Shown here piece by piece: positions 1-35,369 of a stretch of 64,000 nt of DNA; within the stretch, counting starts at the first letter, position 1; the number at the start of each line of letters is the position of its first letter. Location: positions 310,001 through 374,000 of the forward strand of contig QPGO01000068.1 of assembly GCA_008632985.1 (NCBI GenBank), in the 5' to 3' direction. Source of the DNA: Psammoneis japonica. Lineage: Eukaryota. A model generated the notes under the pieces. The model searched no databases, was not told where the DNA came from, and saw only the letters and a list, made by a program, of their open reading frames with translations. Made by a program: the position numbers and the translations under genes.

Positions 1-149
1 GCCACTCTCAATGTCCAAGTGACCCTGGCCATGGGATTTGTGCTTGTGGCTGACCTTGCCACAGCACTTGCCACAGAGGCCATTGTCCAACCACTCTCCA
101 CATCAGTGACAGTGAAGAAAATGGGCTTTGCTGTCTTGGCATCAGGTGG

Positions 150-800
150 AAGGTTGTTCTTTGTGAACTCAGGAAGCAAAAAGGCCTGGGACAGGCAGAC
201 ACATTCAAGCAGATGAGCTGACACAGATGAAGAACATCTTGAGGCAATGGCAGGCATGAGATTTTTCAACAGCACAGATCCAGGCTCTTGTGGGTTGTAG
301 ACAATTGTTCAATCTTGGGTGGGAGCATTTCCAGCAATGGACAGAAGCTGGCATCAAGCTTGCAGAGACTGTGCATCTTGCCAATCTCAGGCAGATGTCT
401 TGCGAGTTTCGTGCAGCTGACAAGACAGAGATCTGCAAGACCAGCCAAGCTGCCAATGCCAGGTGACAACATCTCAAGCAAACCACAACAGCTCACATTG
501 AGAGTGCAAAGCTGCTTGAGCATTCCAGTCTCATTGGGGACCATTGTGAGCAACTTAGAAACAAAGGGCACAGCTTCTTGAGAGCTTTGCATGCACAGAT
601 CTCAGAAGGCATGGACTTGAGCTGTTTTCAATCAAAAAGACCAAGGCAACAAAGCACCATGAGATGCTTCATGTCCAGCATCAAGGCTGTGATGTCCGCA
701 TGTGAGAAATCAAGCAAAACAATCCTGCCTTGCTCATTGATGCTGCACAGGCTTGGCCCACAAGGCAAGAGCAAGTGCGGTGCTTGGCACATCAAACAAG
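150..800 (-). pseudogene. Degenerate leucine-rich repeat (LxxLxLxxCxxLxxLPxxIG-type) gene
   Basis: Minus-strand frames give MVPNETGMLKQLCTLNVSCCGLLEMLSPGIGSLAGLADLCLVSCTKLARHLPEIGKMHSLCKLDASFCPLLEMLPPKIEQL, plus flanking RIVLLDFSHADITAL and MPQDVLHLCQLICLNVSAC. Broken by stops and frameshifts; TpA-depleted. Confidence 0.7.
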
Positions 801-1607
801 GCTTGTGTGGAGCACTGGTGCACCCATGTGTGACAGGATGAAAGGGACAACAAAGTTGTGTTGATGACAACAGCACACAGCTCAATGAACAAACATTTGT
901 GGGAGCAACGCTGCACTCATTTTGCACTGACAACTCAATGCTCAAGTTGCAGTGTGACGCAATGACAAGTGCACGCATTGTGGACAACAACAAAGTGCAT
1001 TCATTTTGCATGTTAAAGACACAACTCCGCCACTGCACACTGTGCCAAAGTGGAAACAGTGCATGCTGGCATGCACTTTGAGCAGCAGTGTGATCTGAGT
1101 TGCCCCACCAATTTTCATGCCCCCAAATGCCATTGGCGGTTTGTGGAACCCGTGCATCCAAGAGGAGGCAATGAGCCTGCCAACACAAGCCTTGACCTCC
1201 CCATTTTAGGGCCCCACCCACTGCCAAGCCTGGAGCTGCAGCTGCGCCAGCACAAAGCATCTCAAACAATGAAGATGACAGGGTTGAAGGGCAGGAGGAA
1301 AGGGTCAAAAAGGACCAGATGCCTGCATGCATGAATGGGATGCACAAAAAAGGCTCATGAGGCATGCAAGTTTCATCATGTGCTCACAGCGTTGTCTTCT
1401 TTGGACTGCGCGCATGGCAAGGCTGGCTGTCTGACAAATGCCAACATCACAAGTGCAAACCAAGGCTTTGTGACATCATTTTGTTCTTGCAATGCATGCT
1501 TTTAAGAAAATGAGATGGATGAAAAATTGCACACTGTCACCACGAAGCAACCAAGACCACAAGAAGGACATCTGGCACAGAAAAAATTCATCTCAGCATT
1601 CACAACA

Positions 1608-2735
1608 ATGACTTGCCAACTTGCTGACATGCCAACATGCTGACTTGCTGACATGCCAACACACCAACTTGCCAACAGCAATGTCGACATGCCGACACGC
1701 TGACTCACCAACACGCCAATGTGCTGACTTGCCAACTCACCAACACGCTGACATGCTGACATGCCGACTTGCTGACTCACCAACTTGCTGACTGACTGAC
1801 ACACTGACTGGCCAACTCGCCAACATGAAGACCCACTGACTTGCCGACAGGCCGACTTGCCGACATGCCGACTCACGGACTCACCCACATGCCAACATGC
1901 CGACATGCCAACACCCTGACATGCCGACTTGCTGACTCACCAACTTGCCAACTGACTGACACACTGACTGGCCAACATGCCGACATGCCAACCCACTGAC
2001 TTGCCAACAGGCCAACATGCCGACATGCCAACCCACTGACTTGCCAACAGGCCGACTTGCCAACATGCCAACTCGCGGACTTGCCGACATGCCGACATGC
2101 TGACATGCCAACTTGCTGACTCACGAACTTGCTGACTGACTGACACACCGACTGGACAACATGCCAACATGAAGACCCACTGACTTGCTGACATGCCAAC
2201 TCGTGGACTTGCCGACTTGTGGACTTGCCGACATGCCGACATGCTGACATGCCGACTTGCTGATTCACTGACTTGCTGACTGACTGACACACCAACTGGC
2301 CAACACGCCGACATGCCAACCCACTGACTTGCCAACAGGCCAACTTGCCAACATGCCGACTCACGGACTCGCCAACATGCCAACATGCCGACACGCTGAC
2401 ATGCCGACTCACTGACTTGCCAGCTGACTGACACACCGACTGGCCAACACACCAACATGCCAACCCACTGACTTGCCGACATGCCAACTCACAGACTTGC
2501 CGACATGCTGACACGCCAACATGCTGACATGCGGACTTGCTGACTCACCAACTTGCCGACTGACTGACACACCGACTGGCCGACACACAGACATGCCGAC
2601 CCACCGACTTGTTGACAGGCCGACTTGCCGACATGCCGACATGCTGACTCGCGGACTTGCCAACCCGCCGACACACCGACATGCCAACACTCCAACTCAC
2701 TGACATGCCCACATGCCGACACTCCCACACGCCAA
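1608..2735. repeat. Tandem satellite of 8-bp GCCGAC(A/T)(C/T)-like units with higher-order structure
   Basis: Units such as gccgacat, gccaacat, gctgactt. The landmark (a/g)ctgactgac recurs at 1791, 1951, 2135, 2279, 2423 and 2559; spacings of 160, 184, 144, 144 and 136 are all multiples of 8. Confidence 0.9.
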
Positions 2736-3049
2736 CGGCAATGTTGAGGAAGTGGGGTCTGCAGAGAAGGAGCTCCAAAGCAACAATTTAAGAAAAAAAG
2801 ACTTCAAAATTAAGACAAGTGACAAAAGTGAGAGCAACTTCATTGGACATGGCAAAGCAGTCACCACACCCAGGCATCAGCAGCACAAGAGTGCGTGTCT
2901 CAGTGTGCACGCCAGTGGCAAAATGAGTGCAGCACGCATGGTGATTGAGAAGATGCAGCATTCTCAACCCATTTGTTTTGAAGAAGAAAGCTCCTCTGAG
3001 CAACAAGATGACAAGGCTGCTGAAAAGTGATTGGGCTCTCTGGTTTGGG

Positions 3050-3925
3050 GATGGACTGGGGTCAGGTGGGCTGCAGCACCAGCTTGATCCTCTCCAACAA
3101 CATGGCAAGAGCAGCAACTCTCTCCATGAACCAACTCATTGGAAAGGAAGAAGCACCACCAGTTCATTGTGGCCCACAGCAGCATCTCAAGTCATGCACA
3201 TTTGTCATGTGACTGACTCCAACTGGCTCCAAATGCCAGTGGTCAGTGGACATTTTTGCTGGGTCTGCAGTGCCACACACCACATTGCTTGCAGGACATT
3301 GGTTGCCCATGGCCCAGCAGTGCATGGAGCATTGGGGCATCAATTGCAAGAAGCCCCACAAGGACCCCACATTGCCCGCGCATCTCCATTTGGGCAACTT
3401 GAACAAGATGAGACCCCACCCAGACCCCTTGAGCTGGCTCTCTTGCTCAATTGCTTGCTTTCTCAGATGCTGCCTGTGGCAATGATCTTTGAAGCCATCG
3501 CTCAACTGCTGGACATGCCTGCATCATTTTGGCTCATGCTGCCATCTCTGCTGTCATTGCAAGATGCAATCTGTGGCTGCAACAAGCTTGACTGAGGCTG
3601 AGTTTTGTGCTGCTGGCAACACTGCCAAATGGGCTCTGAGCCTTTGATCCACAGCTCAGGGAACTTGGTTTTTTTGAGCTGGTCTTGCCCTCCTGCACAT
3701 TGACAGCAAGTTGGCTGTCAAGATTGTTGATGATCGTGCCCCAACCAAATGCTCATGCCACATTGACACTCAGTGGTCTGCTCTCTGATGGGGCTGGAAG
3801 GTCACAAAACACACTGTTGCTGGGCATGTTTCTGGCATCATTGACCCAAGTGATGACCTCACCAAGGCTGTTGGGTCAATGCTGCATGCCCATCATGCCC
3901 GTCAGACATGACGGAGCATTGCCAC
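3050..3925 (+). mobile_element. Ty1/copia (CoDi-like) RT/RNase H remnant
   Basis: Plus-strand translation gives CKMQSVAATSLTEAEFCAAGNTAK and LHIDSKLAVKIVDDRAPTKCSCHIDTQ...HVSGIIDPSDDLTKAVGSMLHAHHAR. This is colinear with the RNase H end of the copia pol at 56761-57150. The 5' boundary is approximate. Confidence 0.8.
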
Positions 3926-5199
3926 TGATGCTTCTGTGCTGCCCCATTTTGTGGCATCTGTGGAACAGCCTTTTTGCATGTTTCATCTGACTCTCTCCAG
4001 AGTCACCTGGTTTGGTCTGCATCCCTGTTGGTTGATTGTCACCTTTTCCTTTGTCGCATCTGTGACCCACAAAAAAAATGTCTCTGTCAGATGTGCTGGA
4101 TCAGAAGAGGGCATCAGCTGACCAGGCATGCTGTGTGCAGTTGCACCATTTGCAGATGAGATCTCTCTTAGATCTGTTTCTCACTCTTTCTTGCTGGCAC
4201 ATGTGGCAACAGCAGCAAATTGGAAGAATGGGCTGGAGTCATTGAGGAACAAGGAGGAAGAAATGCTCTTTGTGTGGTCACTTCACATCATGGGTGCAAC
4301 ACCAGTCAGACCTTTCTGCCATGCATTTCAAAGACAATCCTGTTTGAAAGCAAACAAATGTTGTTTTGATGGAATGTGCCAGTTTGATGTTGTCGACAAA
4401 ACTGTCTGGCAAGTTGCATGCACTTCATTCTTTTTTAACAAACTTGTGAACAATGCACCAGCACAAAAGTGATTCCACACAAGAGGTGCGCCATCAGCAA
4501 ACATTTGTGCCAACCAACAATTGCACAATCTGAGGAATTGGCAGAGCAAGACCATTCTGAGGAATTGGCAGAGCAAGGCCAGTTTTAGAAACAGGAACAC
4601 TGGTTGAGCGCAAAGCCTGAGGACATTGCTGGACATCACATGAAGTGGCACAAAATGCAATCACTGAAGAGTTGGGCTCAAGAGAAAATCTTGGACCAAT
4701 GCCTGGAGAGGCACTTGTCATTGACACCCACATGCCCCAGTCTTCACACACAGCTTTGGGAGGAACAACTTTGTGCCTTCCAATGTTGCAAACAACATGC
4801 TCCATTTTGTTGGAATTGGAGATGCCATGGAAGCAAGCCGTTGGTCTTGAGATGATGTAAATCCCAAACTGTGCCAGCTTGGGATGGTTGGATGAGTGAA
4901 GCTCACCTGGGTGTGAACAGAGAAGTGCTTTGCACAAGTGAGAAATTGAAGAGAAGGGCTGCAGTGGCTTGGAGACTCCAGCAACCAAAAGGGGACTCCT
5001 CGGCAAAATGCAAAAATCACCACAATGTCTGGCAGCTGCAGTGAACAAACTGGTTGCATTTGCTCAAAGGACAAGTGAAGAACCAACTGAAGAGCAGAAC
5101 AACCACACAGTGCAGAAGACAAAATCTTGCATGGCTGCCACTGAGAGAAAACATTTGGCCAGAGCTTCTTGGGAAAGACAAGCCAGAGCTGGGAGGTGC

Positions 5200-5640
5200 C
5201 CCAGTGGCAGGCAGATCTGTGACAACAAGCATGACAGAAGTTGGCCCATCCATTGATGGAGTTGCAAACAGCAAAACACTGGGAGATGCACTCACTCTTG
5301 GATCTTCTGAAGGAGTTGATGATGCAGCTGTTGAAGGCAAGAGGGATGGCACATGACCAGGTTCAGATGACAGAGTTGAAGATGGTGCAGTCACAGGAGC
5401 TGCACTTGGCACTGTGGTTGTCGGCCCATTGGTGGGTGGATTTGTGGGAGGTGGAACAGTGACAAAAGTCAGCAATGGAGAGGGTGCTGGAGCAAGAGTG
5501 ACTTGAGGAGGGGCAGTTGTTGGCGGCAGAGCAAGAGGGGCTGGAGCAGTCACAGTTTCAAAAAATTCACAGAAATCATGCATGAAATCGAAATTGCTTG
5601 CAATGGCTCCTCTTTTAAAATGTTGGCAAAGCACCCAGGA
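5200..5640 (-). pseudogene. Remnant of a Pro/Thr/Ser-rich (mucin-like stalk) surface-protein gene
   Basis: ORF 5017..5634 contains PPTTAPPQVT...PPPTNPPTNGPTTTVPSAAPVTAPSSTLSSEPGHVPS, typical of diatom extracellular proteins. It lies in the TpA-depleted block and has no intact gene model. Confidence 0.5.
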
Positions 5641-6249
5641 CAGGGAAACCTGCTGCCCACATTGGGGCAGCCAAGGGACACAGCTTCTTCTGAGAAAGCC
5701 CTGTCATTGCTGGAAAACTTGCAGAAAAGATCTGCTTGTGACTTGAAATTCAAGACCACTCACACCACACAAATTTCTGCAAATCCATTCCTGACAAGTC
5801 ACAAACCTGTCATCAAGTGCAAAAGTTGCACCAGCATGACAGAAATTGCACACAATGTTCAAGTTGCCATTGTTCATTTCATTCTGAATGCATCAAAATC
5901 ACAACAAAAGCTTCCACTGACATTGGGACAAGCAAGAGCATGGACTTTATCCAAAGCACCTGGGTTGTCATTGATGTCAAACTGGTGTGCATTGCCAAGA
6001 GTTCCAGCATGAAAGTTGAGTCCACACACACACACACACACCACAAACACCTTGGCAATTGGTTTCTTTGGTGACTGCACCAGGGTGCACAACTCTGCAA
6101 ACAAATGAACAACTCAAAGATTGGCACTTTTTGCACTGCCAAATGGCTTTGATGTCACCCAAAATTCACCCAACTGGCATGGATTGACCACATGAATCAT
6201 GAACAGCAAAGTTGAAAGTGTCCCACCCCACAGCACAAACATCAAATGT

Positions 6250-8900
6250 CATTGTTGGCACTCTGAAGCCAGCCCAGCATGAGTTCGCGTTCATGGCATT
6301 GTTGCTCCACTTGCAGTCATTGGTGAGATTGGTGGGCTGCTTCTACGTTGTTCAGCCAGGCTCAGAGGTGTTCCAGGGGGCTGCACAACAGCTCCTCTTG
6401 GGTTCCCTCAAATGACCTCCTGTTGAATTGTGGAAGTTGTTGAGGGCCCAGAGTAAACTCACCTTGAACCTGATCACAAATGGCTTTGGTTTGTGCTTCT
6501 GACAGCATCACATTAGCCGGGTGGACTGTGCCATTGTGGTGTTCCCATTGATCCCATGAAATGTTGCAGACCTTGACACAATGAGTGATCTCACCCACCT
6601 TTGTCCTTGTTTCCCAGAGTTGCCCATTGGCAGCAGGCATGCTGTGCAAATTTCCAATCAAGTGAAAGGCAGCCTTCAATAAATCTGCCCCATCCCATCC
6701 AATCTTGGGAGTCTGCAGCACACTGAACCAGCTCATCTCATGCTTGGATGTGCTGCATTGGGGTGCCATCTTTCCACATTCCCCAAGTCTCTGCAGGATG
6801 ATCTTCACAATTTCTGGGTTGGTCCCTGTCTTGCACAGTCATTTTCAGAGTGTGTCTGGGGATTTGTGCCATTTTTCCGCCACACTCTCTGCCTGGCACT
6901 GCAACACATGGGTCAAGTCTTCCATTGGGAAGAGGCACTGGGGACAAGACTGCACCAGGGATTTGCTCCACAAGCACAGCATTTTGTCAGCCCCACACAA
7001 CCCAGATGTGTGCTTTGCTGCCCATCATGATCTTCTGGATGGCTTTAGATCTGATGTTGCTTTTGCTTGGGAATGGTCAGTGAAGAGAAATGACCCTTGT
7101 CCACCCACTGCTGTGAGAGTTTTCTGCTGTTGATGGCATGGGGCAGAGTGCATCCATTGCATTGCATGTGACTTTCCTGTTCCCAATCCAAAGTGCCCAC
7201 ATCTCTCCTTTTGCTCTTTGTTTGGTCAGGATGCCTGGGGCATTGGCCATTTGCTCTTCGGCCATGAGATCCATGTTGACATAAATCCAGAGGGGCAATC
7301 CAAGTCCTCATGAGCAACATGGTCATCTAGATGCCCTTTGACATTGACCGTGGACCATTTGGCCGGCAACTTTCTCATCCATGAGTGAGCCGCCAACAAT
7401 GCATCACACTGTTTGTGGTTTGCAGTGAGTTCACAGTCAAGGTTGTTGGAGTTCTTCAGGGCCTGATTGCTGTTGCAGCCAATGGAGATGCATCCCTGGG
7501 TTGCACCTCGGAGTTCACAGACTGCACAAATCAACACTGCAGCAGCAAGTTGTCCCACAATCTCAGCCAGCTCAGCATGTGTTCATGTCAGAAGGGTTGC
7601 CTCTTGCTGCATTCAATCCCTTGATTTTGTGTGTGTCATGGATGCCCCATGTTGTCCATGCTGATGCTCCCATGCCATTCAAGTGTGACCCATCAGATGC
7701 AGCTGTGGCTGTCCCTTCAGAAATTGCCTGAGCACAATTGATTTGCTGTTGTCATCATTTTTGAAATCTTCTGCCAACCACTTGACATCTGGATCAAGCC
7801 TGTTGATGGCCTGTTGGAGGTTCTGTGGAGGGCAAGCTTCTGTGAGCTCTGCTTCCTGTGAGAGATGCCTGTTGAAACCACTGCAGTGTCATTTCCCTAG
7901 ATCTTGGTTCTTGTGAGGTTCTCTGGGGTTTTGTCAGTTCCCCCCTCAAAGGCGACAGCATCGGGTGCTGATGGCTCTGGCAGGATGACCCAGGACAGGG
8001 GTGCAGCATTTCCATGTGCCATCTGGGAGGCGTTCACAGACCTGTTGCACTGATGCCAACAGGAAGCATGGCCATTTGCTCAACAAGTTGTCTGTCCACT
8101 TCCTCAAGGGGTTGTGGATGATGGAGTTTTGTGGGTCAACTGTGGTTTCCAAAGCTTCTCTCTGCCATCTCTGGTCATCCTGTGAAGGATTCCCTTGCAC
8201 CGGCCAATTGAAATCCATGTGGTGAGGGTCATGAGTTGGCAGTTGTCCACTCCAGTGGTTTTTCAGGACTCTTCTTCCATTGCCTGTGATGACATCAGAT
8301 GATGCACTCACCCACAGGAACAACTAACACAGGTTCACTTGGGCCAATTTTTCCCCTTTGAATCCCACTCTGTGTGGAACACTTTGATGAGAAATTTGTT
8401 GTTTTCCCAGTGCAGGAGAAGGGTGGGCATGTTTGCTTCCATCTTGATGCTGTTCTGACACAGGAACTTTCACATGTCCTTGATCCAAGAGCAAGTTGCC
8501 AGGCAATGAAATTTGCCACAGTTGTTGTCAAAAAATTTGTCTGGGCATCCCAAGCTCCAATTGATGCTGTTGAAGGTTAGCCTTGACCAGATCCCCTGCA
8601 GTCATCCCAGGCTGAGAATGTTTTGTGACTGTGCTGGGCTGGGAAGCAGCTTTGGCAGTGAAAAGGTTGTTTGTCCCAAGGAAGCTCTTGGCATGTGGGT
8701 GGCCCTCAGACCATGTCCCTGGTCATGTTCCTGCAAATTCCAGCCCCGGCCATTGTGAACTTGGCCTGGTTTTCTGAGATCATGAGTGCTGGAAGTGGGT
8801 GCTCCAGGGTCTTTGTTGCAGTGGCAGTTGGGTTGAGCCACATGTCTTGGCAGTTTGGGTGACACCTGTCCTCACTTTTTCTGACCATGCTTGAGCTGCT
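6250..8900 (-). mobile_element. Degenerate non-LTR retrotransposon (post-RT region plus RNase H domain)
   Basis: Contains KTLEHPLPALMISE...AGICRNMTRDMV (8706..8912), AISEGTATAASDGSH (about 7680-7735), and ISIGCNSNQAL...VNVKGHLDD (7226..7558). These match LINE RNase H motifs (AVSDGS, GCDN, HVKGHQDD). Many stops and frameshifts; ends approximate. Confidence 0.8.
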
Positions 8901-9949
8901 GTTTGGAGGCATTTAACCTCTGTTCTGTCATTTCTGTCTGCTGCCAGCCTGACCCCAAGTGCCCATTCAGCCTTGTCAACTCAACCCCTGTCATTTGCGT
9001 GGGTTGCCTTTGCTGTTTAAGTCCTTGATGGCAAACTCACAGTTGATCTCATCTTCCTTCATGTTGCTCCAGTTGCCTTGCTTCCGTTTGTCAAACCCCA
9101 CCAAACAACACATTGGCTCTTTTCTGGGACTGTTCCTCCACCCGGCACACAACTCTGCAAGTTTGCAGGTGGCAACGGCATTCATCTTGTCCAATGTCCT
9201 TCTCATCTGTTTTTGAAATGAACTTGATGTGACCTGGAGCCATTTCTCAGGAGCAACAAATCACATCATTGCTGGCATCATGTTCAGAGTCAACATCCAC
9301 TGCAATTGTGGGATCAACAACATGGCCTCCAGTTGCAAAGCCTCCCACTGGATGAGTTGGTGGGTCATTGTTTTGCCTCTTGCAATTGCTGCGACTGATT
9401 TCCAAGGCCTCAATTCCTTGGTGGAGTCTGCTGTGCTGCCAACAGCTCCTGGGGCAAAGGCAGCAATGCCAAGTGCCAGAGTGCACAAAACAAGAACATG
9501 GTTGAGTTCCTTGTTGTTCCTTTTTGTGTCAAACAACAAGGCCTCATGGGGCAAAGGTGGCATTGCCAAGTGCCAGAGTGCACAAAGCAAGAACATGGTT
9601 GAGTTCTTCATCATTCTTTTTTGTGTCAAACAAGTGCCATGCCACCCCCCACTTCTTTGTGCCAAACAAGTTGAGGTGTCACATTGTGCCCTGCGGTTTC
9701 TCAGAGAAATGTGCAACCTCAATCATGGACAGTGTTGACCTTGAAAGGCTGTGGCTGTTTTGTCCCCAGAGAGAGCTCACGACTTGGGTGACAACATTGC
9801 AGCACTCTGTTGGATGAATGAACAACTCATGCACTGAGCTGCTGGCTCTCATCTGAGTGGAATGTAGAAAGTCCAATGTGGAGCTCAGTGGTGAGAGAGC
9901 TCCTGCTGCCTCAATGTTTTGGTCACAAAAGGGTGCCACAGATGTGCAG

Positions 9950-10010
9950 CAACCCAACAACAACAACAAGAACAACAACAACAACAAGAACAACAACAAC
10001 AACAACAACA
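9950..10010. repeat. (CAA)n microsatellite, imperfect
   Basis: Directly visible in the sequence. Confidence 0.95.
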
Positions 10011-10902
10011 TGACAAATGGTGGTCCTGAAATGTCCAACTGTTTTGTGTCCATCCTTCCATCAAATGTCCTGTGATGGCCCAATTTGCAGGGCCACCCAC
10101 AGTTCCAACAGCGAGGAAGCAGGAGGCACCACCTGCTGATGTCTTGCTTGATGAGAGCCAGCACATGCCTGATGAATCATGTTGCAACAAAGAACACTTC
10201 TCAGTCAACAACAGTCTGTGGGTGTTCAAAAATTGTTTGCCAGCAGTGCTGCTGCAGGTGCAATTTGCTGGGTCATCCAGCCCCATCTCATTGTCACAAG
10301 ATGAAGAGTGGACACTGCCAAGCTTGCAATCTGCTCAGCGGCAGTGCCACAGAGCAGTGCACCCAAGCAAGCCCCATCCGATGTCAACACGCTTTGTGAC
10401 AAGCTGTGAGCTTTCAACTGCTTTTCCTCTGATGCACAAAACAGCTGCACAAACTGAAATGATTCTTTTCAAATCCCACCCACGCAAAGCCAAAAAGCCT
10501 TGCAGCAGATCCTTTTCAAACAGTTTCCAAGGCCTCAATTCCTTGGCAGCGTCTGCTGCACTGCCAACAGCTGGGGCAAAGGCAGCATTTCCAAATGCGG
10601 TTCCTCATCAATCTTTTTTGCATCAAACAAGTGCCGTGCTGCATGCCCCCCCCCCACTTCTTTGTGCCAAACAAGTTGAAGCGTCACACTGTGCCCCACA
10701 TCAGGCAACCCCAATCGTGGGTGGTGTGTGGTGTCAACCTTGACTGGCTGTGGCTGCCCAATTTCCAGAGAGAGCTTGCTCAGGTGACAACATTGCAAAA
10801 TTCTGTTGGGTGAATGAAAAACCCATGCACTGAGCTGCCAGATCTCCAAAAGGAATCTAGAAAGTCCAAGGCGGCATTCAATGGTGAGAGAGCTGCTGCC
10901 TT

Positions 10903-10924
10903 GACAACAACAACAACAACAATG

Positions 10925-10978
<54 letters not shown>
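10903..10978. repeat. (CAA)n microsatellite
   Basis: Directly visible; paralogue of the 9950-10010 tract. Confidence 0.95.
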
Positions 10979-11455
10979 TGATGAATGGTGGTTCTGAAAC
11001 ATCCAATTGTCAAGTGTCCATCCTTCCATCAAATGTCCTGCGAAATCCCAATTCGCATGGCCACCCACAGTTTCAACGGTGAGGCGGCAGGAGGTGCCAC
11101 CTGCTGATGTCTTGCTTGATGAGAACCAGTGCGTGATGAATCATGTTACAACACGCAGCACACGTCCCGATCAACGACAGTTTGTGGTTGTTCGAAAACT
11201 GTTGGCCAGCAATGCTGCTACAGGTGCAATTGTAGTGTCATCCAGTCCCATCTTATTATCACAAGATGAAGAATAGATGTTACTAAACTTGCTATCTACT
11301 CAATGATACAGCTACAGAGCAGTGCTCAAGTAAGCCTCATCCAATGGCAACACGCACTATAGCGAGCTTTCAACCACTTTTTCTCTAATATACAAAACAA
11401 CTACACAAACTAAAATGATTCTGTTCAAATCCCACCCGTGCAAAACCGAAAAGCC

Positions 11456-14400
11456 TTACAGCAGATCCTTCTCAAAGGCAAATTCCTCCTCGTCACTGTC
11501 CAATGGCTCGTCGTTCTTGAGCTTAGCCTTGATTCTCTTGACGAGTTGCTTCTCTTCCTTCTTGGACATCTTCTTCTTCTGTCCCTTCACCTTTGTAACG
11601 TTACCGGCGGCGTCAGTGACTTCAGTGATTTGTTGTTGCTCCTCGATCTTGGTGTCCTGCTTCAACATCCAGTCGGCATCACCCTTGGTCTCGAGGTGGC
11701 CAGCATCCATCACCCAAGTCTCGGGGCAGAGCTTGGAGCAGAACTCGTTGTTGTGCGTAATCATCACGACACCGCCGTCGAATTCCTCGATAGCTCCGGC
11801 AAGAGCACCAAGAGCGTCGCGATCAAGGTAGTTGGTGGGCTCATCAAGAATCAAAATGTGAGGCTGGTTCCACATTGCAGCAGCCAACACCACCTTGACT
11901 TTCTGTCCACCAGAGAGGGCTGACATACGGTAGTGGGTACCAAACTCACGGTCCAAACCGCAGTCTTCCAAATGCTGTTCAACATTCTTGGTAGACAGAG
12001 GGCGGACGTAGAGACCAGCACGCTGAGCAATCTTGGCATCCACAGCCTTCATGGCCTTGTCCCAACCCATCTTCTTGAGAGTCTTTGCGGGCAAGTACTC
12101 TCCAGAATCAACAGTAGAGCCGGCATAACGGACTTCGTACTCGTAATCCTTGCTCTTGTTCGTCTTACGGCCTCCAACGAGTTCCGCGACAACCTTCTTG
12201 ACCTTGCTGATCTTGCCGGTCTCGGCATCGGTGAACTGGATCTCGTATGGAGTCTTCTGCAACTTCTCCTCCTCGGGTGTGAAAACCATCGTAACCTTGA
12301 CAAGACTCTCCTTGTCCTCACCCTGGTTGGCGTATCGCCAACGAATGTATTCATTGGGAGTCTTGTTGAGGTGACTCTCAATGTGGTGGAATGCGTGCTG
12401 GGCAACGTAGGCAATACGAGCGTTGGGGTGCTTCCAGACGTCTCCCGTCTGGGGTTCAATCTCTCCGACGAGAAGCTTGATCATGGTAGACTTTCCGGCA
12501 CCGTTCTCTCCGACGCAAGCAACGCGAGAACTGAGCGAAACCTGGACACTAATATCAAACAGAGTGGGCTTATCGTTGCCGGGGTACGTGAAGGTACAGT
12601 TGCTCATCTTCATGAGAGCTTTACCCTTGGACTTGACGCCCTCAATCACACCAGGCTGGGGGAACCTGAACTTCTGCTTCGATTCCGTGAAGGAGAAGTA
12701 AGAACGGGCGGAGGGCTTGATTTTGACAAACTCATCGAGGTTGCCCTTGAAGGTGTGGAGCTTCAAGTTCTCAATCTGGAGAATGTTGGTACAGCAGTCG
12801 TTGAGAAGACCAGAATCGTGACTGACAATGATGGAGGTCACGTCGGTGAGCGAGTTCAAGTAGTTCTTAACCCAGGCAACGTTGATAACATCCAAGTGGT
12901 TGGTAGGCTCATCAAGAAGAAGGATATCAGCCTTTTGAAGCATTGCACGAGCAAGGGCGAGCTTCATACGCCATCCTCCACTCAAGGTAGACACGGCGTG
13001 ATCGGGCTTGGCCTTACCGTCGGGGACAAAACCGACAGTTCCAAGAACCTTCCTGACCTCATCCTTCTCGATATTAAGAGCTTGGATCTTCTCATCGGCA
13101 AAGACGTAGTCGACGCAGGAAAGATGGGACTGTTCACCCTGGATATCGGCTTCGACGAAAACAGTACGGACCTCGGTCACATCAGGGAACCCCTCGACCT
13201 GGTTGTTGGCGATGGCACGCATAAGCGTGGTTTTTCCGGAGTCGTTACCTCCGAGAAGACCGTAGCGCTTACCACGCTTGAGCTTCATCTTAGTGTTGTG
13301 GAGGAGAATCTTGGTACCGTAGGCAAGAGTGAACTGGCAGTTGCAAAGCTCTTCAGCATCGTCATCATCGTCGTCCTCCTCCGGGATTTCGAGCATCTGC
13401 TCTGCAACCACACGAACGGCCTCGGTCTTTTCTTCACACTGGGCTGCATCAAAGTAAGCCTTGAAAAGAGGAGAAATGTTCTTCTTCCACTGGAGCTCGT
13501 CCATGAAGTGGAGATCCATCATGCACGTCGCAATGATCGAGGCGTGGCTCACCACGGTGGCGTAACCAGGACCGGCGTCCTCCAAAGCAAAGGCCTTCTC
13601 GAACTCGGTATTGAGTTTGCTAATATCTCCACGGACAGACATAGCCTTGTCAGCAAGACCCTTGAGGCGGTTGAGTTGCTCTACGGCCTTCTCAGTGACG
13701 CTTCTGGCCTCGGGATCAGCAATACTCTCTGCGTTGGTTTGGAGAGCAGGAAGAAGGAGGGGAAGGAAAGGAGCAGCGTCGAGAGGGTTGTCGACAAGCT
13801 TACTCATGTTGTTGATAATAACAGCGGACTGGCGCTTAGTGGCAGTCTGCTTTTCGCGGAGTCCACGGAGCAAAAGGGGCACAACCATTGCAAGAGCAGG
13901 CGACTCGACACTCTGGACGAACGTAACACCAGCCATCTCGTGCATGATCTCCGGAACCTCCTTGGGCTTGGTGATAGCCGTAAGGATCTTGTCCGTCATG
14001 TGCTCAATATCCTTGTTTCCAATCACGGACAAGGCACTTCTCATGGCAGCAGTAGCAGCAGCCTTGACCTGCTTCTTGGTGTCCCACATACAAGCGGTGA
14101 CCTCGGGGACAATCTCGGGAAGAGCGTTACCGAGCTGTTTCGGTGCGGTCTCGCCAAACGAGGCGAGACATTTCAGTGCAACTTCACGCGATTGCCATTT
14201 CTTTTCAACTGGGAGCTGTGCAAAAATTGGTGGGAGGAGTGATTTCATGGCGAATGGAGTGATCTTTTGACAGATGACAATGGCGCACTCTGATGACGCC
14301 TTACGGACATCGGCACTCTTCGAGAGTGCTTGCTCGATACCTGCGAGGATCGTACGACAAATGAATATAACGTGAGATTTCAGTCGGGGGTCGAAGTTAC

Positions 14401-14772
14401 GATGATGTTAAGTCAATAACACAATCCCGTCAAAGCTGCGATGACATAAAGTCAATAACACAACCCCATCGAAGCTGCGATGACGTAAAGTCAATAACAC
14501 AATCCCGCAAGTGCGTCATTGCAAAGTCTGAACTTACATGGTGTGAGGCATTCCTTGGTAAATGCTTCCGCTTCTGGGGCACCTTCCATAAGAGCCTTGG
14601 CAGTAGCGATTCCGGCAAGAGCTTCCTTCTCGTCCTTAGACGCACACTTGGCGACAAGAGCGCTGATGTTAGCAGCCAAGCCTGACTTTTCGACTCCATC
14701 GGCCTTCACGGCATCGACGATGGAGGCTTCATCGCCGACAGAAAGTGCGGCAAACTTTTCTTCAAGAGACAT
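11456..14772 (-). CDS. EF3: Translation elongation factor 3 (eEF3; HEAT region plus two ABC ATPase domains with a chromodomain-like insert)
   Basis: Exon 1 (14772-14538, MSLEEKF...) splices in frame over a GT-AG intron (14537-14341) to exon 2 (14340-11456). Motifs: KWQS, EELCNCQFTLAYG, GGNDSGKT, LSGGWRMK, GENGAGKST, AYVAQHAFHHIE, LSGGQKVK, and a basic/acidic tail. Confidence 0.95.
14390..14506. repeat. Three copies of a 39-bp minisatellite in the eEF3 intron
   Basis: Consensus gtcgaagctgcgatgacgtaaagtcaataacacaatccc at 14390, 14429 and 14468. Confidence 0.95.
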
Positions 14773-24192: not shown

Positions 24193-24619
24193 TGTGTTTA
24201 CTTGGTCAAATAATTGTGGCAAGCCGAAGTAAGTCCGAAGTGTTGAAAGTCGAAAGTGTTGTTGTGTTGAAACGCGCGCGCGTGGGATTCATTTTCATTC
24301 CTTATTCGATGCCCCCAAAACGTCATGACGTCATCTGGACGTCACCTTGAACGCCCTTCAGCAGCACTGCGCAGTGGTGCAGTTGCACAGTTTTGTTTTG
24401 TGTTGTTTCAGAGAATCTGCAAGTAAGGTTACAGCAGGTCCAGAAGTAGATGAGGAAGAGGACTGCTCTCCACTCTAGCAGGTAGAAGAGAGTGGCTTCT
24501 CTTGTCTCTCTGGTGGTGAGAGAGAGATGCCAAGGCAGCGGAGCGAGCAGAGCCAAGAACACTCGTGACGAGCCAAGAACGCGTGACGTTGGTGGAGAGC
24601 AGCACGTTCAAACAATTAA

Positions 24620-25700
24620 AATGGCAAAAGATTGTGACCACACTTGGCACTTTTGAAATTTCTGCATGTTGCTGGCACATCATCAAGACCATGTGTGCAA
24701 AATGGCGCGCTGCTGCCAACCTCGGAGCTGCAGCGAGGAAGGCGCGGCCAGTCGCAAAAGAGGCTGTTGGCTCTAACGGCAACTGTGTTTCCACACACAG
24801 CTGCTGAATCTCCAAAAAAGTCATCTCTGCCATTGCCACTGGGCACTGTCAGTTTCTCTTGCAGCTTCCAAATTCCTTTGGCATGAATGAAAACCTGGGC
24901 ACTTCTGGCTTTGCCTCTGTCTTTTGACTCATCTCCACAAACTCCAGCAACAATCATCGTGTCATTGTGGGTTGATGCACTGAAACCAAGTTGGTCATTG
25001 GCAGATGGATTTTGTGTGCACAGCTCCTCATCAAACTTCCGCTGTCTGCCGCTGTCTTGCTTGTGGTGCAGAGAAGCACTTCTTTTGGCCAATGTCCTTG
25101 ATCATTGTCTCTCATTGCCACAACCATGAATCAACTTTCATGAATTGAAACTCTTGAGCCAAACATGTTGCCACTTGGAGTGGTGTCCTGCACAACAATC
25201 TTTGTCTTTTGCTTCGCGAACCACACTTTCTATTTTCTTGCAGTCACACAGACACAAGCACTGCCAGAGTCTTTGCCACTGTGGTTGTCTCCACCATCAG
25301 CACCAACAACAAGGGTCTTGTCATGCATGGAGATGCTGGCGCCACTTCTGCCACTGTCGTGGTCGTTCTCGCGGGCACCAACGGCAGCGCTGACTCCAGA
25401 AATTGCCGCACACAGCAGCCAAGCACACGCCGCCTTGATCTCTGTCAGAAGAGGTGAGAATGGCCTTCTTTGCCCATTCAGTGCCAACATGGGCAAAAGC
25501 ACAGGCCTTTTTCTGAGGCAATTCTCATTTCTTGGAATTGGGTGATTGTCAATGTTCTTCCAATCTCCAGGAGCTCCCACAACAAGTGTGTGTTTCCTGA
25601 AAAAGCCAGTGCGGCCAAGCCAAATCGGTCCCCTGGTCTGCCATCTGAGCCTTGAATTTCAGCTTGCAGCTTCCACATTCTCCATTCTTGGATTGCAGGT
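24620..25700 (-). pseudogene. Degenerate FG-GAP (integrin-alpha-like beta-propeller) repeat gene
   Basis: WKLQAEIQGSDGRPGDRFGL, TLVVGADGGDNHSGKDSGSACV, WKLQEKLTVPSGNGRDDFFGDSAAVCGNTVAV. Frameshifted and TpA-depleted. Confidence 0.8.
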
Positions 25701-25992
25701 GTAAAAATGCTTCCACCACCGTCGTTGAAGATTCGGTGACGTTGGGGGCTTCAGAGACGCTGTGCGACGGGTAAGATCGTCGTAGGCTCATAACCTCATA
25801 ATGACTCGTTCCGATTCCCGAGTCAGTCACGAGTCACGAATTGCTCACAGCTCACAGCTCACAGCCCATGGCCCCTGGCCTCCGCCGCCGCTGTTTTGGC
25901 CGCCGCCTGCTTATATCGTATGGTCAGGTAGTTTTGTAATGATCTCCCTTTCAGGTAGCAGCTGTGTCATCAAATGCCGAGACTCATAGACT

Positions 25993-28900
25993 ATGGAAGC
26001 GACGAAATCAAGCAGAAAGCGACGCTCCCCAAACAAGGGCTTTCGGAGAGGATTTCTTCTTGGCCCTTCAGCCACGTCAAGAACACAACAGCAACGCAGT
26101 CGACGTACCGGGGGCTCTGTCCATTCCATAGAAAGACTCAAGAATCGAGACAACGATGAAGAGAGAAATGTGTGTAGCGATCTCTTGCAATTTGAAGATG
26201 AGGAGCAACGAGCAACTCCCAACGAGAAACAGGACACGCATCCCTTTTGGATTCTTTCAAGCGACGGTAACGACGAAAACGATCAACAGGACGAGCCGAT
26301 ACAAGAACAACAACCAATTATTCCCTTTATCTCATCAAATGATAGCAAGGATGATGGCTTTCGAATGGAGGTGGTCTCCACCAAATCGCGCAAGCGCCAG
26401 AGTAGCAGTTCTTCTCCGCTGATTCAAGAAGTATCTCCGCAGACTGAGAAAACACTTGAGCCAACATCCAGAAGCCCAAGCCATGATTCCACTCAATTAA
26501 CAAAGGAAGACACAAACGGTGGGCATCCGATGGCAAGTGGGCCCTTAATGGTTGAAGTACTGGAACCTGCTTCAATGCCGCGGGGAGCAACAAGAAACGA
26601 GGACGGTGAAGAAACAGATGACGGCCGAGTCGAAGCCACAGGACGACAACACGGCGACTCAACAGTGGATATTTCTTCCCTACGAGTAGCTCTTTCACGT
26701 GTTCTTTGGCAAATACAACGACAGTCCAATAAACATGAGAAGGAAATCATTGCTCGTGATTTTGTTTCGCAACAAGAGCTTTCGTCTCGTTCTCAACTCG
26801 AATACATATGGGATTCCATTCTAGAGGCTTGTGCTACGAGAGACGCGGATTCTAGTGTGCCTGAAGTGCAACTAGCCCTGGCCATAATACAAGGTGCACC
26901 GGATGGACTCTCGAGCCTCTCCGCCTTTCTTGCTCCAACAACCGAGGAGAGGTCAAGGGTTTTGGCCATGGGAGCTATACTTGTTTTGCAGTGCCAGCTG
27001 GATTGCATTACTACTGAAGAGCGTGAAGAAGATTCATCTACACGGCACATTGGTACATTATTGGATTTGATTTTTCCCAGCCTGATCAACGTTGTCGTAC
27101 AGTCGGCGTCCTCACAGCGGAAAACCGTCTTGTCTCATCATTGCACGGTGGTGAGCTCTGAAGTGTTGACTCTTGCCTCCAAAGTCGCATGTCGAAAAGC
27201 AGATGATGTCGTCCTATTGCAATCGGTGTACAAGACATTGTCACCGGTGGAGAAACTCGTAAAGGTCCACCAAAAGTGGCTAGGAGTGTCATCTTTGACG
27301 GAACATAATTTTGCGAACCTTTCCCACGATGCCTCTCGCAAGCACTGCACAATGGCTGTCTTCCAGGATTGGCTGCGAGTGATAAAGATTTGCGAAACTG
27401 AGTACCAGGACCTGTGCTTAGAGGGAAGTGACCAACAAAATTCGATGGTCAGCGTCGCACATTACTGGGCAGAACAAGCAGGCGGCGTTCAACTAGAAGA
27501 GATTGCGAGCGTGGGCAGTTTGGCTCAAACGTTTGGTTCAGACCGACAAAGACTTGCCCCAGGCGATGTGATGAAGTGTCTCGAAGCCGCCTGCGGTCTA
27601 ATGCAGTTGAGTCGAGAGGAAGAGAATCCGGACCAAGTCGAATCTATCCAGGATCGACTATGCTCAGTCCTTCGAGGAGTTACTGCGTGGCTGGGTCAAA
27701 GCAAAAAGAACTTGCGTCGGTTGGCCAAAATGTCGATTGCCGACAAATCTCACGACGAGAATTCAAACAGCATTCATCGCGCCATGGAGCTTTTAATGAA
27801 TCTTCTACGGTGCAACTCGGAAAAGAGCACGAACCTAGTTCTAGCTTGTTTGTGAGTCATCTCGTTGTGTTTGCCCCGTGACCTCCTTGTAGCAAGTCTT
27901 CTGATACCTTGCTGTGCATTTTCTCTCGCTCGTGCGCACATAGGAACTACTTGTGGGCCGACTCGGAAGGGCTTCCTCCGGATTTTCTGCAACAACCGGA
28001 CGCTGTTACCAGCAAAGGCGGAGTACCTCCATCCTTTGGCTTGTTGTTGGACGAATTGAAGTCGACAGTCTCGGCAACACATGACGTTATAGGCGAGGCT
28101 GATGCCAGCTTTGAGCTTGACCCGTCAACGAAGGCATTGAGTTTGATAGTTTCGCGGTGCATAATACGGAAAGGAAAGCCTCTTCTCGACGAAACAATGT
28201 CTCGAAATGGCGTAAATGACGCGACAGTGGAAGTGTTAGCTTTGCTGATTTCTCAAACTATATCCGCTTCAGCCGACCTCGAAGCAGAGGATTCACTAGC
28301 AAACCAAGCTGGAACAATACTTCTGAACGGAATACGATCCAATCCCTCTGTCAGAAGAAAACTAAGAAATTCACCTGCTCTGCTCTCCGGACTTCCGTTG
28401 AAGCTTACTGTGCCCAAGCTTATTCAGATATTGGCCGAGGAAATACAATCGGGTAAGGATGTTGTAGCTGTTGTTACGGCATCGCTCACACAAATTTTGG
28501 AAATGAATAAGGCACACTTGAAAAAATTGATATCAGTTTTGATTGATTCGCTTCTTCAGATCAAACCCATCGGTGAAGAATCAAATCTGATCGAAAAACT
28601 ATGCGCCAGCTTTGGCGGCAGCTGGAGGCGTTCTTTGCTGAGGGACTCAAGCTTTGGAGAAGATGGCTTATCAGTCGTCTTAGTTGAGATCGGTAAAACC
28701 ATGTTCTCCATGCCAGCAATCCTTGCACCTCTTACTCTGTTTGGGTCCATCGTTGGCGACGAACTCAGTCTTAGTGAAGCATCCAACACCGAGCGTCGAC
28801 GTGTTGACTTGGCCACTTTAGCCCTGTTAAGGTTGAGTTTGAGTGCGCTTGACGCACTGCAGGCTCCTAGTAGTATCGTGGAAGGAGAAGGGGGCGCGAG

Positions 28901-31684: not shown

Positions 31685-32949
31685 GCCGTCGCCATCGTCA
31701 TTTTTGTTTTCTTTTTCTTCCGTTTTGGGTTTTGGATGGAGCGTTCTTTGATGATTTTCTTTGGAGAGTGCAGCAACGAATCATTCGACTCAAACACTTT
31801 GCTGACGTCACAGCCCGCGCGTCGACTTACTTACTACTCCCAACTGCCATACGGTAGCTGCTAGCTAGAGAGAGAGTTCACTTTAGTGTCTCTACTTTCC
31901 TGGGCCCACTAGAGCTAGCTGGGCGTTGCCAGCTGATCGATCAGTTGCATCTTAGATTGATGCCGAAATGGATCAACCTGAACCCCCTACACTTGGTTGT
32001 GGATGCTGAAGGATCGAGGTGTGGTTCATCTTTGTTGGTGTGTGATTTCACAATTTTGGGTGTGTTTCACCACTGTGATTTTTTGAAATCTAAATCCCAG
32101 CACGACTTTCAAGGGAGGACCATGGGTTGGTGCATTCATCCAGAGGTCTAAGGTGCTGCATGCACCGGAGGAGGGTCAGATGGCACATTGACTTAAGCAC
32201 ACTCATGCTGGCAGAGGCAACAGCGCCATGTCAGAGCTCTTCCAGGACCCTCCATGATGCCTCAAAGCCCTCTGGGAAGGTCACAAAATCACCAGGCTGT
32301 GCAATCACAACCTTGGACTTGGAAGATTTGAGTGTTTGTCAAATGATGCAGACAACAAAGTCACAACAAAGGTGCAAAAATGGGGGTGCCAGCAACAACA
32401 GCAACAGACGGGGATGATGCATCACATTGCTGCTGCTGCTGTCAGTGAGGTGTTGCTGTTGTCATTGTTGCTGCATGAGTGGGTGCAAGCTGCCAAGTTC
32501 TCACTCTGACACACTCATGCTGGAACACACTGTCCAGCAAAGATGGCAAATGTGCTCAACAATCATTTTTGTTGGTGTGCGTTGACACATTTTGTCATCC
32601 AAAGAATGCAGAAAGTGCCATCTCCGGCATCTGTCACAAATTAGCCCAGCACTGAAAACTGCATGGGAGTGCATGAGACAATCCAAAACCATTTCATCTG
32701 GAGCTGCAACATGTCATCTCTGGCACATCTTGAGGACTGTCACATTGCTTGGGTGCACACCATCCACCCACGCCAAACCTTGTGGGCACCAGCTGCTCAT
32801 TGGGACTGGGTGAAATGCAGAGACAAGAGAAGCATCAAAAACAGCAGCTGCTTCTTGTGCCTCCTTTTGCCACCTCCACAACCCTCTTTTGCAAAATTGC
32901 CCTCCTTGTCCATCAGCAGACTGCATTGGCACAGCTTCAAGGCAGCCAA

Positions 32950-33720
32950 TCTTCCTTCCAAAACAACCTGTGACAGGTCCATTGGCCCTGGGTCAGCCTC
33001 TGGCTACACACATCCATGTGATCACAAGCTGTCCCATGGGCTTGGCATTCAATCTAAAATTGAGTTCTCCTCCAGCCAAAGAGAAGCTCTTTGTCATCAA
33101 ATTTGTGTGTGTTCTTCCTGAAAAAAAGCATTGACGACATGAGGGTTGCCTCTGACAGCTTTGCAGCAATGGGCTGCCTTCTCTTTCATGGAACCAAGCT
33201 GTCATGGACAGAGTTGCAAACCAACAAGTGAAGGTCAGCCCAGTGACTGTCAGTGGCTGAAAATGTGAGCCACCACCACACTGTGGGCACTCCACTCAGG
33301 TCTGTCAAAGCCTCAAGCTCTTTCTTCTTCTTTTCCCACTTCATTTTTTTTCTTCTTTTTCTTCTTGCAAAAGCAGAAATCAATGCCACTTGCACTGAAC
33401 TTCTGCACATGTTGGAAACAATTTCTTTGAAGTGTTGTCCACTCTCTTGGACAATGTCATCTTTCAGTTTTTTCTTGGTGAGCTGGGTGTCATCTGGGCT
33501 CTCATGCAGGTGCATGTTCTTTTGATCCTGGCAGACACTCGCAACAATGCCAAGCAGCATTCTTGGTCCAGTGCATCCACTGCTGTGATGAGCAAATGGA
33601 GATGCACCCCACTCCCCAGCCTTGTTGTCAAAAGGCACATGCCACATGCAGACATTGGCAGGGTGACCATTGTTTTTCATTGACCTCTTGGACAATGGAA
33701 GTGGGGTCAATCAAATGCAC
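32950..33720 (-). mobile_element. Helitron Rep-domain remnant
   Basis: GVPTVWWWLTFSATDSHWADL resembles the Helitron PTxFxTxSxADxxW motif. IECQAHGT (about 33025-33055) resembles the EY/FQxRG Rep motif. Confidence 0.6.
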
Positions 33721-34659
33721 ACAGCACTTGAAACATTGACATGCTCTCGCTGTCTCCTGGATGAGGGCAAATCAGATGGTTGACACAACCCACCAGGTGA
33801 GACATCCTTGCTCTCCTGGTGCTGGTGTGGATTCTGCTGTGATTCCAACAGTGGTCAATGCATGTGGCAGATGACTTGAACAAGCTGCCTGGGCTGTGTT
33901 TTTGCAGCCTTTGAGCTGCCAGGGCTTGGAGACCTCACCCTGCAAGACATTGCAGCCAGGTTCTGTTTGTTTGCAAATTGGGAAAGTGCAAAAGAAGAAA
34001 ATCTGTTGCCACCAGAAACCCAACAACACAGTGTTGCCATCCATGTGCCCCATGTCCCATGTCCTCCTTGCAGTTGCAATTTTGTCAAGCACTGCAACCA
34101 CGCATTGATCAAGCACCAATGATGCAGAGTGGTGCATCAGAATCTCCCTGGGTGGTGCTGACACATCTGAAGAGAACAACATTTGTGCTTGGAGTTAACA
34201 TGTGCAGCACATCTCACCCAAGAAGGTTGACAAATTCCCAGTTTTCTGCCATGTGAGATTTGACAGAGCTTGCACTTGCCAGCAGGAGTGGCACAAATGA
34301 CATTGTTGATGGACCAGTGGGCAATGATTCAGAATCTGATTCAATGGGTGCAAGCCAAGACTCTCAGATGGATGCTGGCCAAACTTTGAAAAAATGGATG
34401 ATGTGTCTGCTTTCTCTGAAGGAAACAATCTATCAAGTGTGCAATGGTCAACAATGTTTTGGAGCTTTTGAGTGCAGCTGTCTGGAATTTGATGGGTGGG
34501 ATGAGAAAGCAGAGCAACAGCAAGAACGTCTCTGTCTGAACCTTGTTGATCAAGCTTCAAGGTGTCAAGTTTCTTTCAAGTTGCTCAATGAATGACAGTG
34601 TCTGGCTCACCATGTTTGCAGCTGCAAGTGCTGTTGTTGGCTTGGAGACAGCAAACAAA

Positions 34660-35260: not shown

Positions 35261-35369
35261 TGGTGCAGCAGAAGACGACAATGGGCACAGAGCCCATGTG
35301 AGGTCATGAGTTGAGTCCATGGCATTGTCACTCCAATTGTCCATTGACAGCCACCCTTGCTCATTTTTG

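Follow-up and report, generated by a model that had tools for sequence, protein, structure and literature searches.

The eEF3 locus and its duplicated 3' flank

The DNA analysed here is a nuclear stretch of 64,000 nucleotides from the diatom Psammoneis japonica (GenBank assembly GCA_008632985.1, contig QPGO01000068.1, positions 310,001 to 374,000 of the forward strand), hereafter called the window, and all coordinates refer to positions within it. Its minus strand carries a complete gene for elongation factor 3 (eEF3), and repeat finding, global alignment and MAFFT agreed that the 3' flank of this gene is a tandem duplication with a unit of approximately 1 kb. The duplicated piece extends from 21 nt inside the end of the eEF3 coding sequence to about 950 bp downstream, and the dinucleotide TpA (TA), present in the part of the proximal copy B nearest to the gene, has been lost from the distal copy A. 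The features of the locus are listed below, with dinucleotide content given as the ratio of observed to expected frequency (o/e).

11456-14772, minus strand: complete eEF3 gene, exon 1 at 14772-14536 and exon 2 at about 14365-11456
11456-11458, minus strand: functional eEF3 stop codon TAA (TTA on the plus strand)
11147-11455, minus strand: unmutated part of copy B, 309 bp directly 3' of the eEF3 stop
10524-11480: proximal copy B, the gene-side copy of the duplication
10524-11146, no strand: mutated part of copy B, with 1 TA, common to copy A, and CpG o/e 0.30
10904-10978: (CAA)n microsatellite of copy B, contig break
9399-10523, no strand: distal copy A, TA-erased throughout (1 TA in 1125 bp, CpG o/e 0.07-0.21)
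10500-10502, minus strand: stop-codon relic in copy A, CAA (TTG on the plus strand), TpA to CpA on the coding strand
9955-10010, no strand: (CAA)n microsatellite of copy A, where the Logan contigs break
9446-9633, no strand: 97-bp internal tandem duplication private to copy A, with 3 TG/CA-discordant sites

The long open reading frame (ORF) at 11456-14248 on the minus strand was identified as elongation factor 3 by the Pfam domains ABC_tran and HEAT_EF3, and over the C-terminal 431 residues its identity to 120 homologues among the matches listed is 89-95%; those with a name belong to diatoms (Thalassiosira exigua, Mediolabrus comicus, Thalassiosira sp. and Attheya sp.). The composition of the gene is normal (TA o/e 0.45, CpG o/e 0.85), and the 309 bp behind it, together with the stop codon, contain 21 TpA (TA o/e 0.74) and 9 CpG. 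Judged by the 3' tails of related loci whose 3' flank ends with the contig (median 108 nt, at most 288 nt in 60 of 62), positions 11147-11455 are probably the 3' untranslated region and terminator of eEF3.

Since copy B terminates 21-25 nt within the eEF3 coding sequence, copy A holds a relic of the last seven codons (LFEKDLL) followed by the relic of the stop codon. The two copies are 77% identical, or 89% identical in purine/pyrimidine coding, and the duplication is not recent, because transversions alone amount to a divergence of 4-5%. The corresponding identities of the 97-bp sub-duplication are 88% and 99%. No older upstream copies of the unit were detected in a purine/pyrimidine-coded self-comparison of the sequence, where the sole extra match spanned 108 columns at 84%.

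The original prediction, which had described this locus as a before/after experiment in TpA loss, had named misassembly of the duplication as what would overturn it. This is unlikely, since the contigs of run X1 did not differ from the window at any position of 8200-9944, 10019-10896 and 10993-13000, were interrupted only at the two (CAA)n microsatellites, and bridged the junction of the copies (10520/10524) in one contig of 951 nt. As run X1 may be the assembly's own source, this agreement represents consistency and not independent proof. The bridged junction rules out that two haplotypes were joined in tandem, and a collapsed repeat is ruled out by the equal word depth in run X1 contigs, which was 64-65 in both copies and 60 in the eEF3 gene.

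Loss of TpA from the distal copy

In the global alignment as well as in MAFFT, 21 TpA were counted in the stretch 11140-11476 of copy B against 0 in its counterpart in copy A (10175-10523), and the contrast reported in the original prediction was thus recovered. Where the prediction had 11 TG, 5 CA and 1 AA at 17 hand-aligned sites, the global alignment places 12 TG, 6 CA, 1 CT and 1 AA opposite the 21 TpA, with one further site adjacent to a gap; this last site stands opposite TG in MAFFT, bringing the TG count to 12-13. The example strings that it had quoted are present at 11383-11417 and 10427-10461. Nineteen of the 21 TpA carry a single transition in copy A, the changes being A:T to G:C and giving TpG or CpA, and in the reverse direction none of the 60 TG or CA of the copy B stretch faces a TA in copy A. 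At the TA density of unmutated non-ORF DNA of this window (713 in 14,790 bp), about 17 TA would be expected in 349 bp.

The aligned stretch (335-337 columns) contains 62 mismatches, 49 of them transitions and 13 transversions. A context-resolved table of substitutions, proposed earlier as a check, was made from the pairwise alignment with copy B taken as the 'before' state and both strands pooled on the purine:

TpA to TpG: 19 of 42 adenines (19 of 21 dinucleotides)
ApA to ApG: 8 of 60
GpA to GpG: 6 of 36
CpA to CpG: 5 of 59
CpG to CpA: 5 of 16
TpG to TpA: 2 of 59
ApG to ApA: 3 of 43
GpG to GpA: 1 of 20

The change is specific to TpA, with A to G at 19 of 42 TpA adenines against 19 of 155 other adenines (Fisher p = 9e-6), and chance is therefore excluded. 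The CpG changes that had been noted between the copies were found as well, five of the nine CpG of the copy B stretch being CA in copy A. Likewise, the roughly seven AA/AG differences counted by hand correspond to eight ApA to ApG changes. However, the suggestion drawn from them, a weaker preference for WA (W being A or T), was not borne out, since ApA to ApG (8/60) is not above GpA to GpG (6/36), and the AA and AG frequencies in the depleted blocks described below are the same as elsewhere (AA 1.14 vs 1.13, AG 0.99 vs 1.02). The modest excess of A to G outside TpA (19/155 vs 6/122, p = 0.04) is unpolarised and without a counterpart at the level of the blocks. From site to site the mutation switches between the strands (9 runs vs 9.8 expected), and strand-coherent mutation tracts were not found in the eEF3 pair.

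Direction of the change

As outgroups we used 80 related eEF3 loci from metagenome contigs, whose coding identity is at most 85% and among which copy A has no match. TAA is found at exactly the position of the eEF3 stop codon in 75 of these loci, the other five having a stop there or within two codons, and the protein ends at the same residue in 120/120 of the eEF3 homologues listed. TAA is thus ancestral at this position and the CAA of copy A was derived by T to C at TpA, which upholds the earlier argument that the stop codon fixes the direction. Polarisation by an outgroup, which the original prediction had envisaged for the whole flank, succeeded for the stop codon only, since the alignments of the 80 loci end there (one continues for 18 nt) and the rest of the flank is unaligned. 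Within the window, the TA o/e of 0.74 in copy B is ordinary for unmutated non-ORF DNA (0.67), and the TA-free state is confined to the depleted blocks. The longest TA-free runs in the 12 top-ranked related loci measure 180-487 bp, and most of them fall within the eEF3 coding match or ahead of it; the flanks of the 80 loci are short, and TA-free runs there are uninformative on the spread to other diatoms.

A second polarised test was provided by the same window, in the ORF of a copia-type retrotransposon (block IV below). At 22 alignment columns where at least 60% of 20 relatives have tyrosine, the residue in the window is Cys in 9, His in 8, Trp in 3, Ser in 1 and Tyr in 1. The ORF as a whole contains 0.3% Tyr, 4.9% Cys and 7.4% His, and the Tyr content of its relatives is 2.4-6.4%, except for one at 0.7%.

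Depleted blocks across the window

The loss of TpA is not confined to the duplication, and four blocks with the same signature were delimited in the window:

1-11146, no strand: block I, TA- and CpG-depleted, 27 TA in 11,146 bp, right edge inside copy B
24617-25702, no strand: block II, 3 TA in 1.1 kb, CpG partly lost
32194-38913, no strand: block III, same signature with sharp edges, enclosing an unmutated island (36785-37128)
55443-63390, no strand: block IV, copia-type retrotransposon, TA erased, CpG partly lost (o/e 0.34-0.71)
56761-61260, minus strand: copia-type polyprotein ORF of 1499 aa, open though 17 of 22 conserved Tyr are Cys or His

Together the blocks cover 26,559 bp with 86 TA, an o/e of 0.05 compared to 0.58 in the rest of the window, and the CG o/e is 0.28 (462 CG) compared to 0.97. 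TG and CA are raised (o/e 1.79 and 1.80 vs 1.12 and 1.15), and the GC content is 49.8% vs 48.1%. Differences in the remaining dinucleotides are small, with GA and TC lower (0.99 and 1.00 vs 1.17) and the GC dinucleotide higher (1.17 vs 1.02). Per 1000 trinucleotides, the blocks have 36 fewer TAN and 39 fewer CGN, and 41 more TGN and 41 more CAN, so that the gain in TG and CA roughly balances the loss of TA and CG. The edges of the blocks are sharp to 50-100 bp, the steps in TA and CG coincide, and the loss of TpA is ahead of that of CpG, as seen in block IV (TA o/e 0.03-0.15, CG o/e 0.34-0.71), with no bin showing the reverse. The eEF3 locus forms the edge of the 11-kb block I, which runs into copy B, and is not simply a pair of one mutated and one unmutated copy.

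The TA that survive in the blocks are unevenly distributed over their flanking bases (R, purine; Y, pyrimidine). Measured against unmutated DNA, RTAY survives at 1%, TA with mixed flanks at 8% and YTAR at 20% (chi-square p = 1e-10, or p = 2e-8 against the non-ORF baseline), and by the following base survival is 16% for TAA, 9.5% for TAG, 5% for TAC and 3% for TAT. The order of the flank classes, read mainly from the 86 survivors, points to 5'-TAY as the favoured target, with a pyrimidine 3' of the mutated A.

Independent mutation of both copies after the duplication

The part of copy B farther from the gene (10524-11146) has 1 TA, and its counterpart in copy A likewise has 1, so that copy B is as TA-free as copy A there; CpG density returns at 11041 and TA at 11147. 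The before/after comparison of the original prediction thus stands for the last ~300-340 bp of copy B, which are unmutated, and falls for the first ~620 bp. In 600 aligned columns of this shared region, 12 sites have TG in one copy and CA in the other, and 3 further sites of this kind occur in the 97-bp sub-duplication private to copy A. Each discordant site marks an ancestral TA (or CG) at which the two copies were mutated independently of each other. Given nearly equal frequencies of the two outcomes, 12 discordant sites would imply approximately 24-27 independently mutated sites, and the densities of unmutated DNA predict 23-37 ancestral TA in 600 bp. The implied sites therefore amount to about the whole expected TA complement, indicating that the duplication came first and that nearly all of the erasure occurred later, in both copies.

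Hence, the whole of copy A and the distal two thirds of copy B were mutated independently to saturation after the duplication, and the same 337-bp sequence was saturated in copy A and spared in copy B, 956 bp away. The process is directional and TpA-specific, changes A:T to G:C to saturation with both strands interleaved, and acts in sharply bounded blocks that also lose CpG.

Origin and targeting of the mutation

We consider it likely, with reasonable confidence, that the eEF3 locus is the border of a chromatin domain, silenced and carrying repeats, in which a TpA mutator acts and which is bounded at eEF3. Inside such a domain, a DNA mutator would turn TpA into TpG or CpA on either strand, preferring 5'-T-A-pyrimidine, and a slower, methylation-type decay of CpG would proceed alongside. 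The piece of approximately 1 kb from the 3' end of eEF3 was duplicated in tandem and then mutated independently in both copies, while the 240-360 bp next to the eEF3 stop stayed outside the mutated DNA, whose edge sits 240-360 nt from the stop, and kept TpA and CpG. Targeting would then follow a chromatin or methylation domain that ends where a highly expressed gene is transcribed, and not homologous pairing, and the duplication itself may have nucleated or extended the silencing. That a silenced or methylated domain selects the targets is suggested by the edges in the sequence, and the sparing of one homologue 956 bp from its saturated partner argues for a bounded domain and against a pairing trigger of the kind known from repeat-induced point mutation (RIP). 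The chemistry would be deamination of adenine to inosine, read as G, by a TadA/ADAT-like or other deaminase acting on DNA; a thymine-centred change on the opposite strand would be an alternative chemistry, equivalent as far as the sequence goes.

Several observations weigh against this interpretation. The mutation post-dates the duplication, and a repeat-induced trigger is thus also possible. Block I, to which copy A belongs, gave no transposon domain when 30 stop-to-stop ORFs of 1-11146 were compared to Pfam. Two TG/CA-discordant sites (11278 and 11375) lie inside the 'unmutated' stretch of copy B, and this spared stretch may not be wholly pristine. As to the preferred context, those sites of the eEF3 pair where one strand is favoured divide 10:3 by strand (p = 0.09), and the Tyr codons of the copia ORF show 4 Cys to 3 His where Cys is predicted and 5 to 5 elsewhere, so that strand choice supports the TAY rule only weakly. 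The flanks of the TG/CA-discordant sites (4 R..Y, 4 mixed, 3 Y..R and 3 differing) are too few to bear on it.

Among the alternatives, a mirror image of RIP fares best, although we regard it as unlikely. According to this explanation the tandem duplication was recognised by homology and both copies were mutated as repeats, and in the 300 bp on the eEF3 side mutated alleles were lost through selection on an essential gene. It would agree with the 12 discordant sites, which date essentially all TA erasure in the unit later than the duplication, with the same pattern being repeated in the 97-bp sub-duplication, and with the harm that a CAA outcome at the stop codon would cause. In contrast, the same homologous 337 bp have 19 of 21 sites changed in one copy and at most 2 in the other, and selection would need to protect all 21 TpA, including sites 240-310 bp from the stop, even though the alternative outcome at the stop codon, TGA, is harmless. 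Moreover, CpG too are kept again from this place on (11041 onward), which a domain edge fits better.

Error-prone patch repair appears very improbable. In phase 2 of antibody somatic hypermutation, polymerase eta makes errors at WA motifs, and frequent deamination of 5-methylcytosine in methylated repeats could similarly recruit mismatch repair together with polymerase-eta-like A to G errors at WA. This would explain both the alternation of the mutated strand (9 runs vs 9.8 expected) and why the losses of TpA and CpG share domains and edges. However, the polymerase-eta signature includes ApA, whereas here ApA to ApG is not above GpA to GpG and AA and AG are as frequent inside the blocks as outside, and the loss of TpA is complete in block IV where most CpG survive, and thus did not wait for CpG deamination.

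That copy B instead gained its TpA by RIP-like C to T at CpA, or that an artefact of assembly or base calling is involved, is hardly credible. The pairwise comparison alone is indeed unpolarised, and the assembly may have been made from the only run with the stretch. However, 75 of 80 relatives show TAA to be the ancestral stop, the TA content of copy B is ordinary and TA-free DNA is limited to the blocks, and the copia ORF has Cys or His in place of conserved Tyr. Contigs at depth 60-65 match every base, with exact 31-letter words implying accurate reads (which would presumably call modified bases as the parent base), and the 4-5% transversions between the copies are real divergence. Ultraviolet TA* photoproducts were set aside on reasoning only, as they would not stay within sharply bounded blocks.

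Relation to known systems

RIP in Neurospora and other ascomycetes changes C to T at CpA, thereby creating TpA and lowering the GC content; it is triggered by duplication or pairing and depends on the RID and DIM-2 cytosine methyltransferases at a premeiotic stage. The process in P. japonica resembles it in that duplicated and transposon DNA is riddled with transitions of one dinucleotide until genes are dead, and in that tandem duplications are affected while neighbouring single-copy genes are spared. In contrast to RIP, the direction is opposite, TpA being destroyed by A:T to G:C without lowering of the GC content (49.8% vs 48.1%), and one of two homologous stretches was spared, which a pairing trigger would not predict. 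With regard to duplication as the determinant of mutation in RIP, both copies were found to be mutated over 600 bp and only one copy over the last 337 bp.

The closest parallel was found in the chlorarachniophyte Bigelowiella natans, where, as described in the main text of a preprint, mutation-accumulation lines show TpA to TpG/CpA hypermutation of integrated giant-virus and virophage DNA at a local rate ~1000-fold above background, with an adenosine deaminase, an ADAT2-like candidate, proposed as a defence against invading DNA (Mettrop et al., 10.64898/2026.01.13.699255). As described there, A:T to G:C is confined to TpA, as it is here at 19 of 21 sites with a block TA o/e of 0.05, and the mutation is regionally restricted to clusters of TpA-poor, CpA- and TpG-rich windows, comparable to the four sharp-edged blocks. 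Unlike in B. natans, the host is a diatom, thus a stramenopile, and the word 'diatom' is absent from the main text of the preprint. The erasure is saturated here (TA o/e 0.02-0.06), whereas the viral region reported there keeps 3.3% TpA. The targets are not only viral inserts as in that account but include transposon DNA, namely the copia element of block IV, and host DNA in the form of the duplicated eEF3 flank; blocks I and III have no transposon domain match. We further observed loss of CpG and a preference for a pyrimidine at +1, and none of the terms 'CpG', 'flanking', 'trinucleotide' and 'heterochromatin' is used in that main text. A full-text literature search returned no report of such a process in diatoms, and this 2026 preprint is so far the only report of targeted A:T to G:C hypermutation of nuclear DNA.

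ADAT/TadA enzymes deaminate A34 of the tRNA, following the conserved U33, and A to G with a preference for a 5' T (U) is a likeness between ADAR/ADAT A-to-I editing and the changes seen here. The preference of ADAR for an upstream U is also quoted in the B. natans preprint (10.64898/2026.01.13.699255). In contrast to RNA or cDNA editing, the eEF3 flank is a tandem duplication of host DNA and not a retro-copy, and the changes of both strands are interleaved; a route through RNA or cDNA thus does not fit this locus. A polymerase-eta type of WA mutagenesis, affecting TpA and ApA, differs in its ApA component, which was not encountered here.

Methylation in diatoms is reported to be mainly at CpG (PMC5124317), and the loss of CpG to TpG/CpA in the blocks (o/e 0.28 vs 0.97) and at 5 of 9 CpG in the flank is like the CpG decay of methylated transposons. 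However, the loss of TpA is beyond the reach of 5-methylcytosine deamination, and CpG decay is the slower process here, as block IV shows. CpG decay is a companion process and not the explanation.

A bolder proposal, which we hold only tentatively and would not back at even chances, is that diatoms carry a natural genome defence by DNA adenine editing, a mirror image of RIP. In it, the adenine of 5'-T-A-Y would be deaminated on either strand in silenced, CpG-methylated chromatin, with the activity stopping within ~100 bp of an active gene, and TpA would be erased from transposons as well as from whatever host DNA comes to lie within the domain. If this is true, then together with the Bigelowiella report TpA editing would be an old defence across lineages of stramenopiles, alveolates and Rhizaria (SAR). 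A DNA adenine deaminase with a defined motif would then be expected to exist in nature. Should the process be enzymatic, the enzyme would be a natural TpA-specific DNA adenine editor, of interest for genome defence and for base-editing tools.

The value of the eEF3 locus lies in the same host sequence being present once inside and once outside the domain, so that no assumptions on transposon ancestry are needed to read direction, specificity and saturation, with the stop codon providing a polarity backed by outgroups. The sparing of one homologous stretch bears on the choice of targets, in favour of a domain and not of pairing, and the abrupt boundary next to an essential, highly expressed gene shows how precisely the process is confined.

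Other features of the blocks and the window

Blocks without TAA and TAG are also a trap for annotation, as they give long spurious ORFs in which transposon proteins lose their tyrosines. Erasure of TA removes TAA and TAG stops, and dead elements thus keep long ORFs. The blocks contain 79 stop-to-stop ORFs of at least 110 aa, including overlapping ORFs of 110-250 aa on both strands, which are numerous because TAA and TAG are missing. Comparison of 60 stop-to-stop ORFs from blocks I-III to Pfam left 56 without a match and gave only a weak LRR match and FG-GAP repeats, with no transposon domain. Rfam and tRNA scans of the 64-kb window gave no matches.

In block I, a 183-bp inverted match of 70% (3447-3628 vs 57056-57232) is the only link to the copia element or to a transposon. 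The block also contains a minisatellite (1610-2736) with an 8-bp base unit of about GACATGCC and higher periods of 16, 40, 80 and 144, in which TG exceeds CA (o/e 2.7-2.9 vs 1.4-1.5) and more CpG survive than in the surroundings.

Block II is located between a divergent RIO-kinase gene and the ORF 25993-27855. It includes two ORFs with FG-GAP repeat matches and zero tyrosine, and may be a fragment of a host-type gene caught by the mutator. The island within block III (36785-37128, ~345 bp) is normal in its density of TA and CpG and sharply bounded at either end; it showed neither flanking inverted repeats nor an Rfam match, and represents either an insertion of very recent date or an element that is protected. 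In block IV, the copia element has an internal tandem duplication of 674 bp (60074-61419), 76% identical and 92% identical in purine/pyrimidine coding.

Finally, two adjacent ORFs on the minus strand (42575-46689) together resemble one LSD1-type histone demethylase gene, of note as that of a chromatin enzyme, with an amine oxidase domain, PHD-like zinc fingers and an N-terminal FAD-binding part, and appear to be an ordinary gene.

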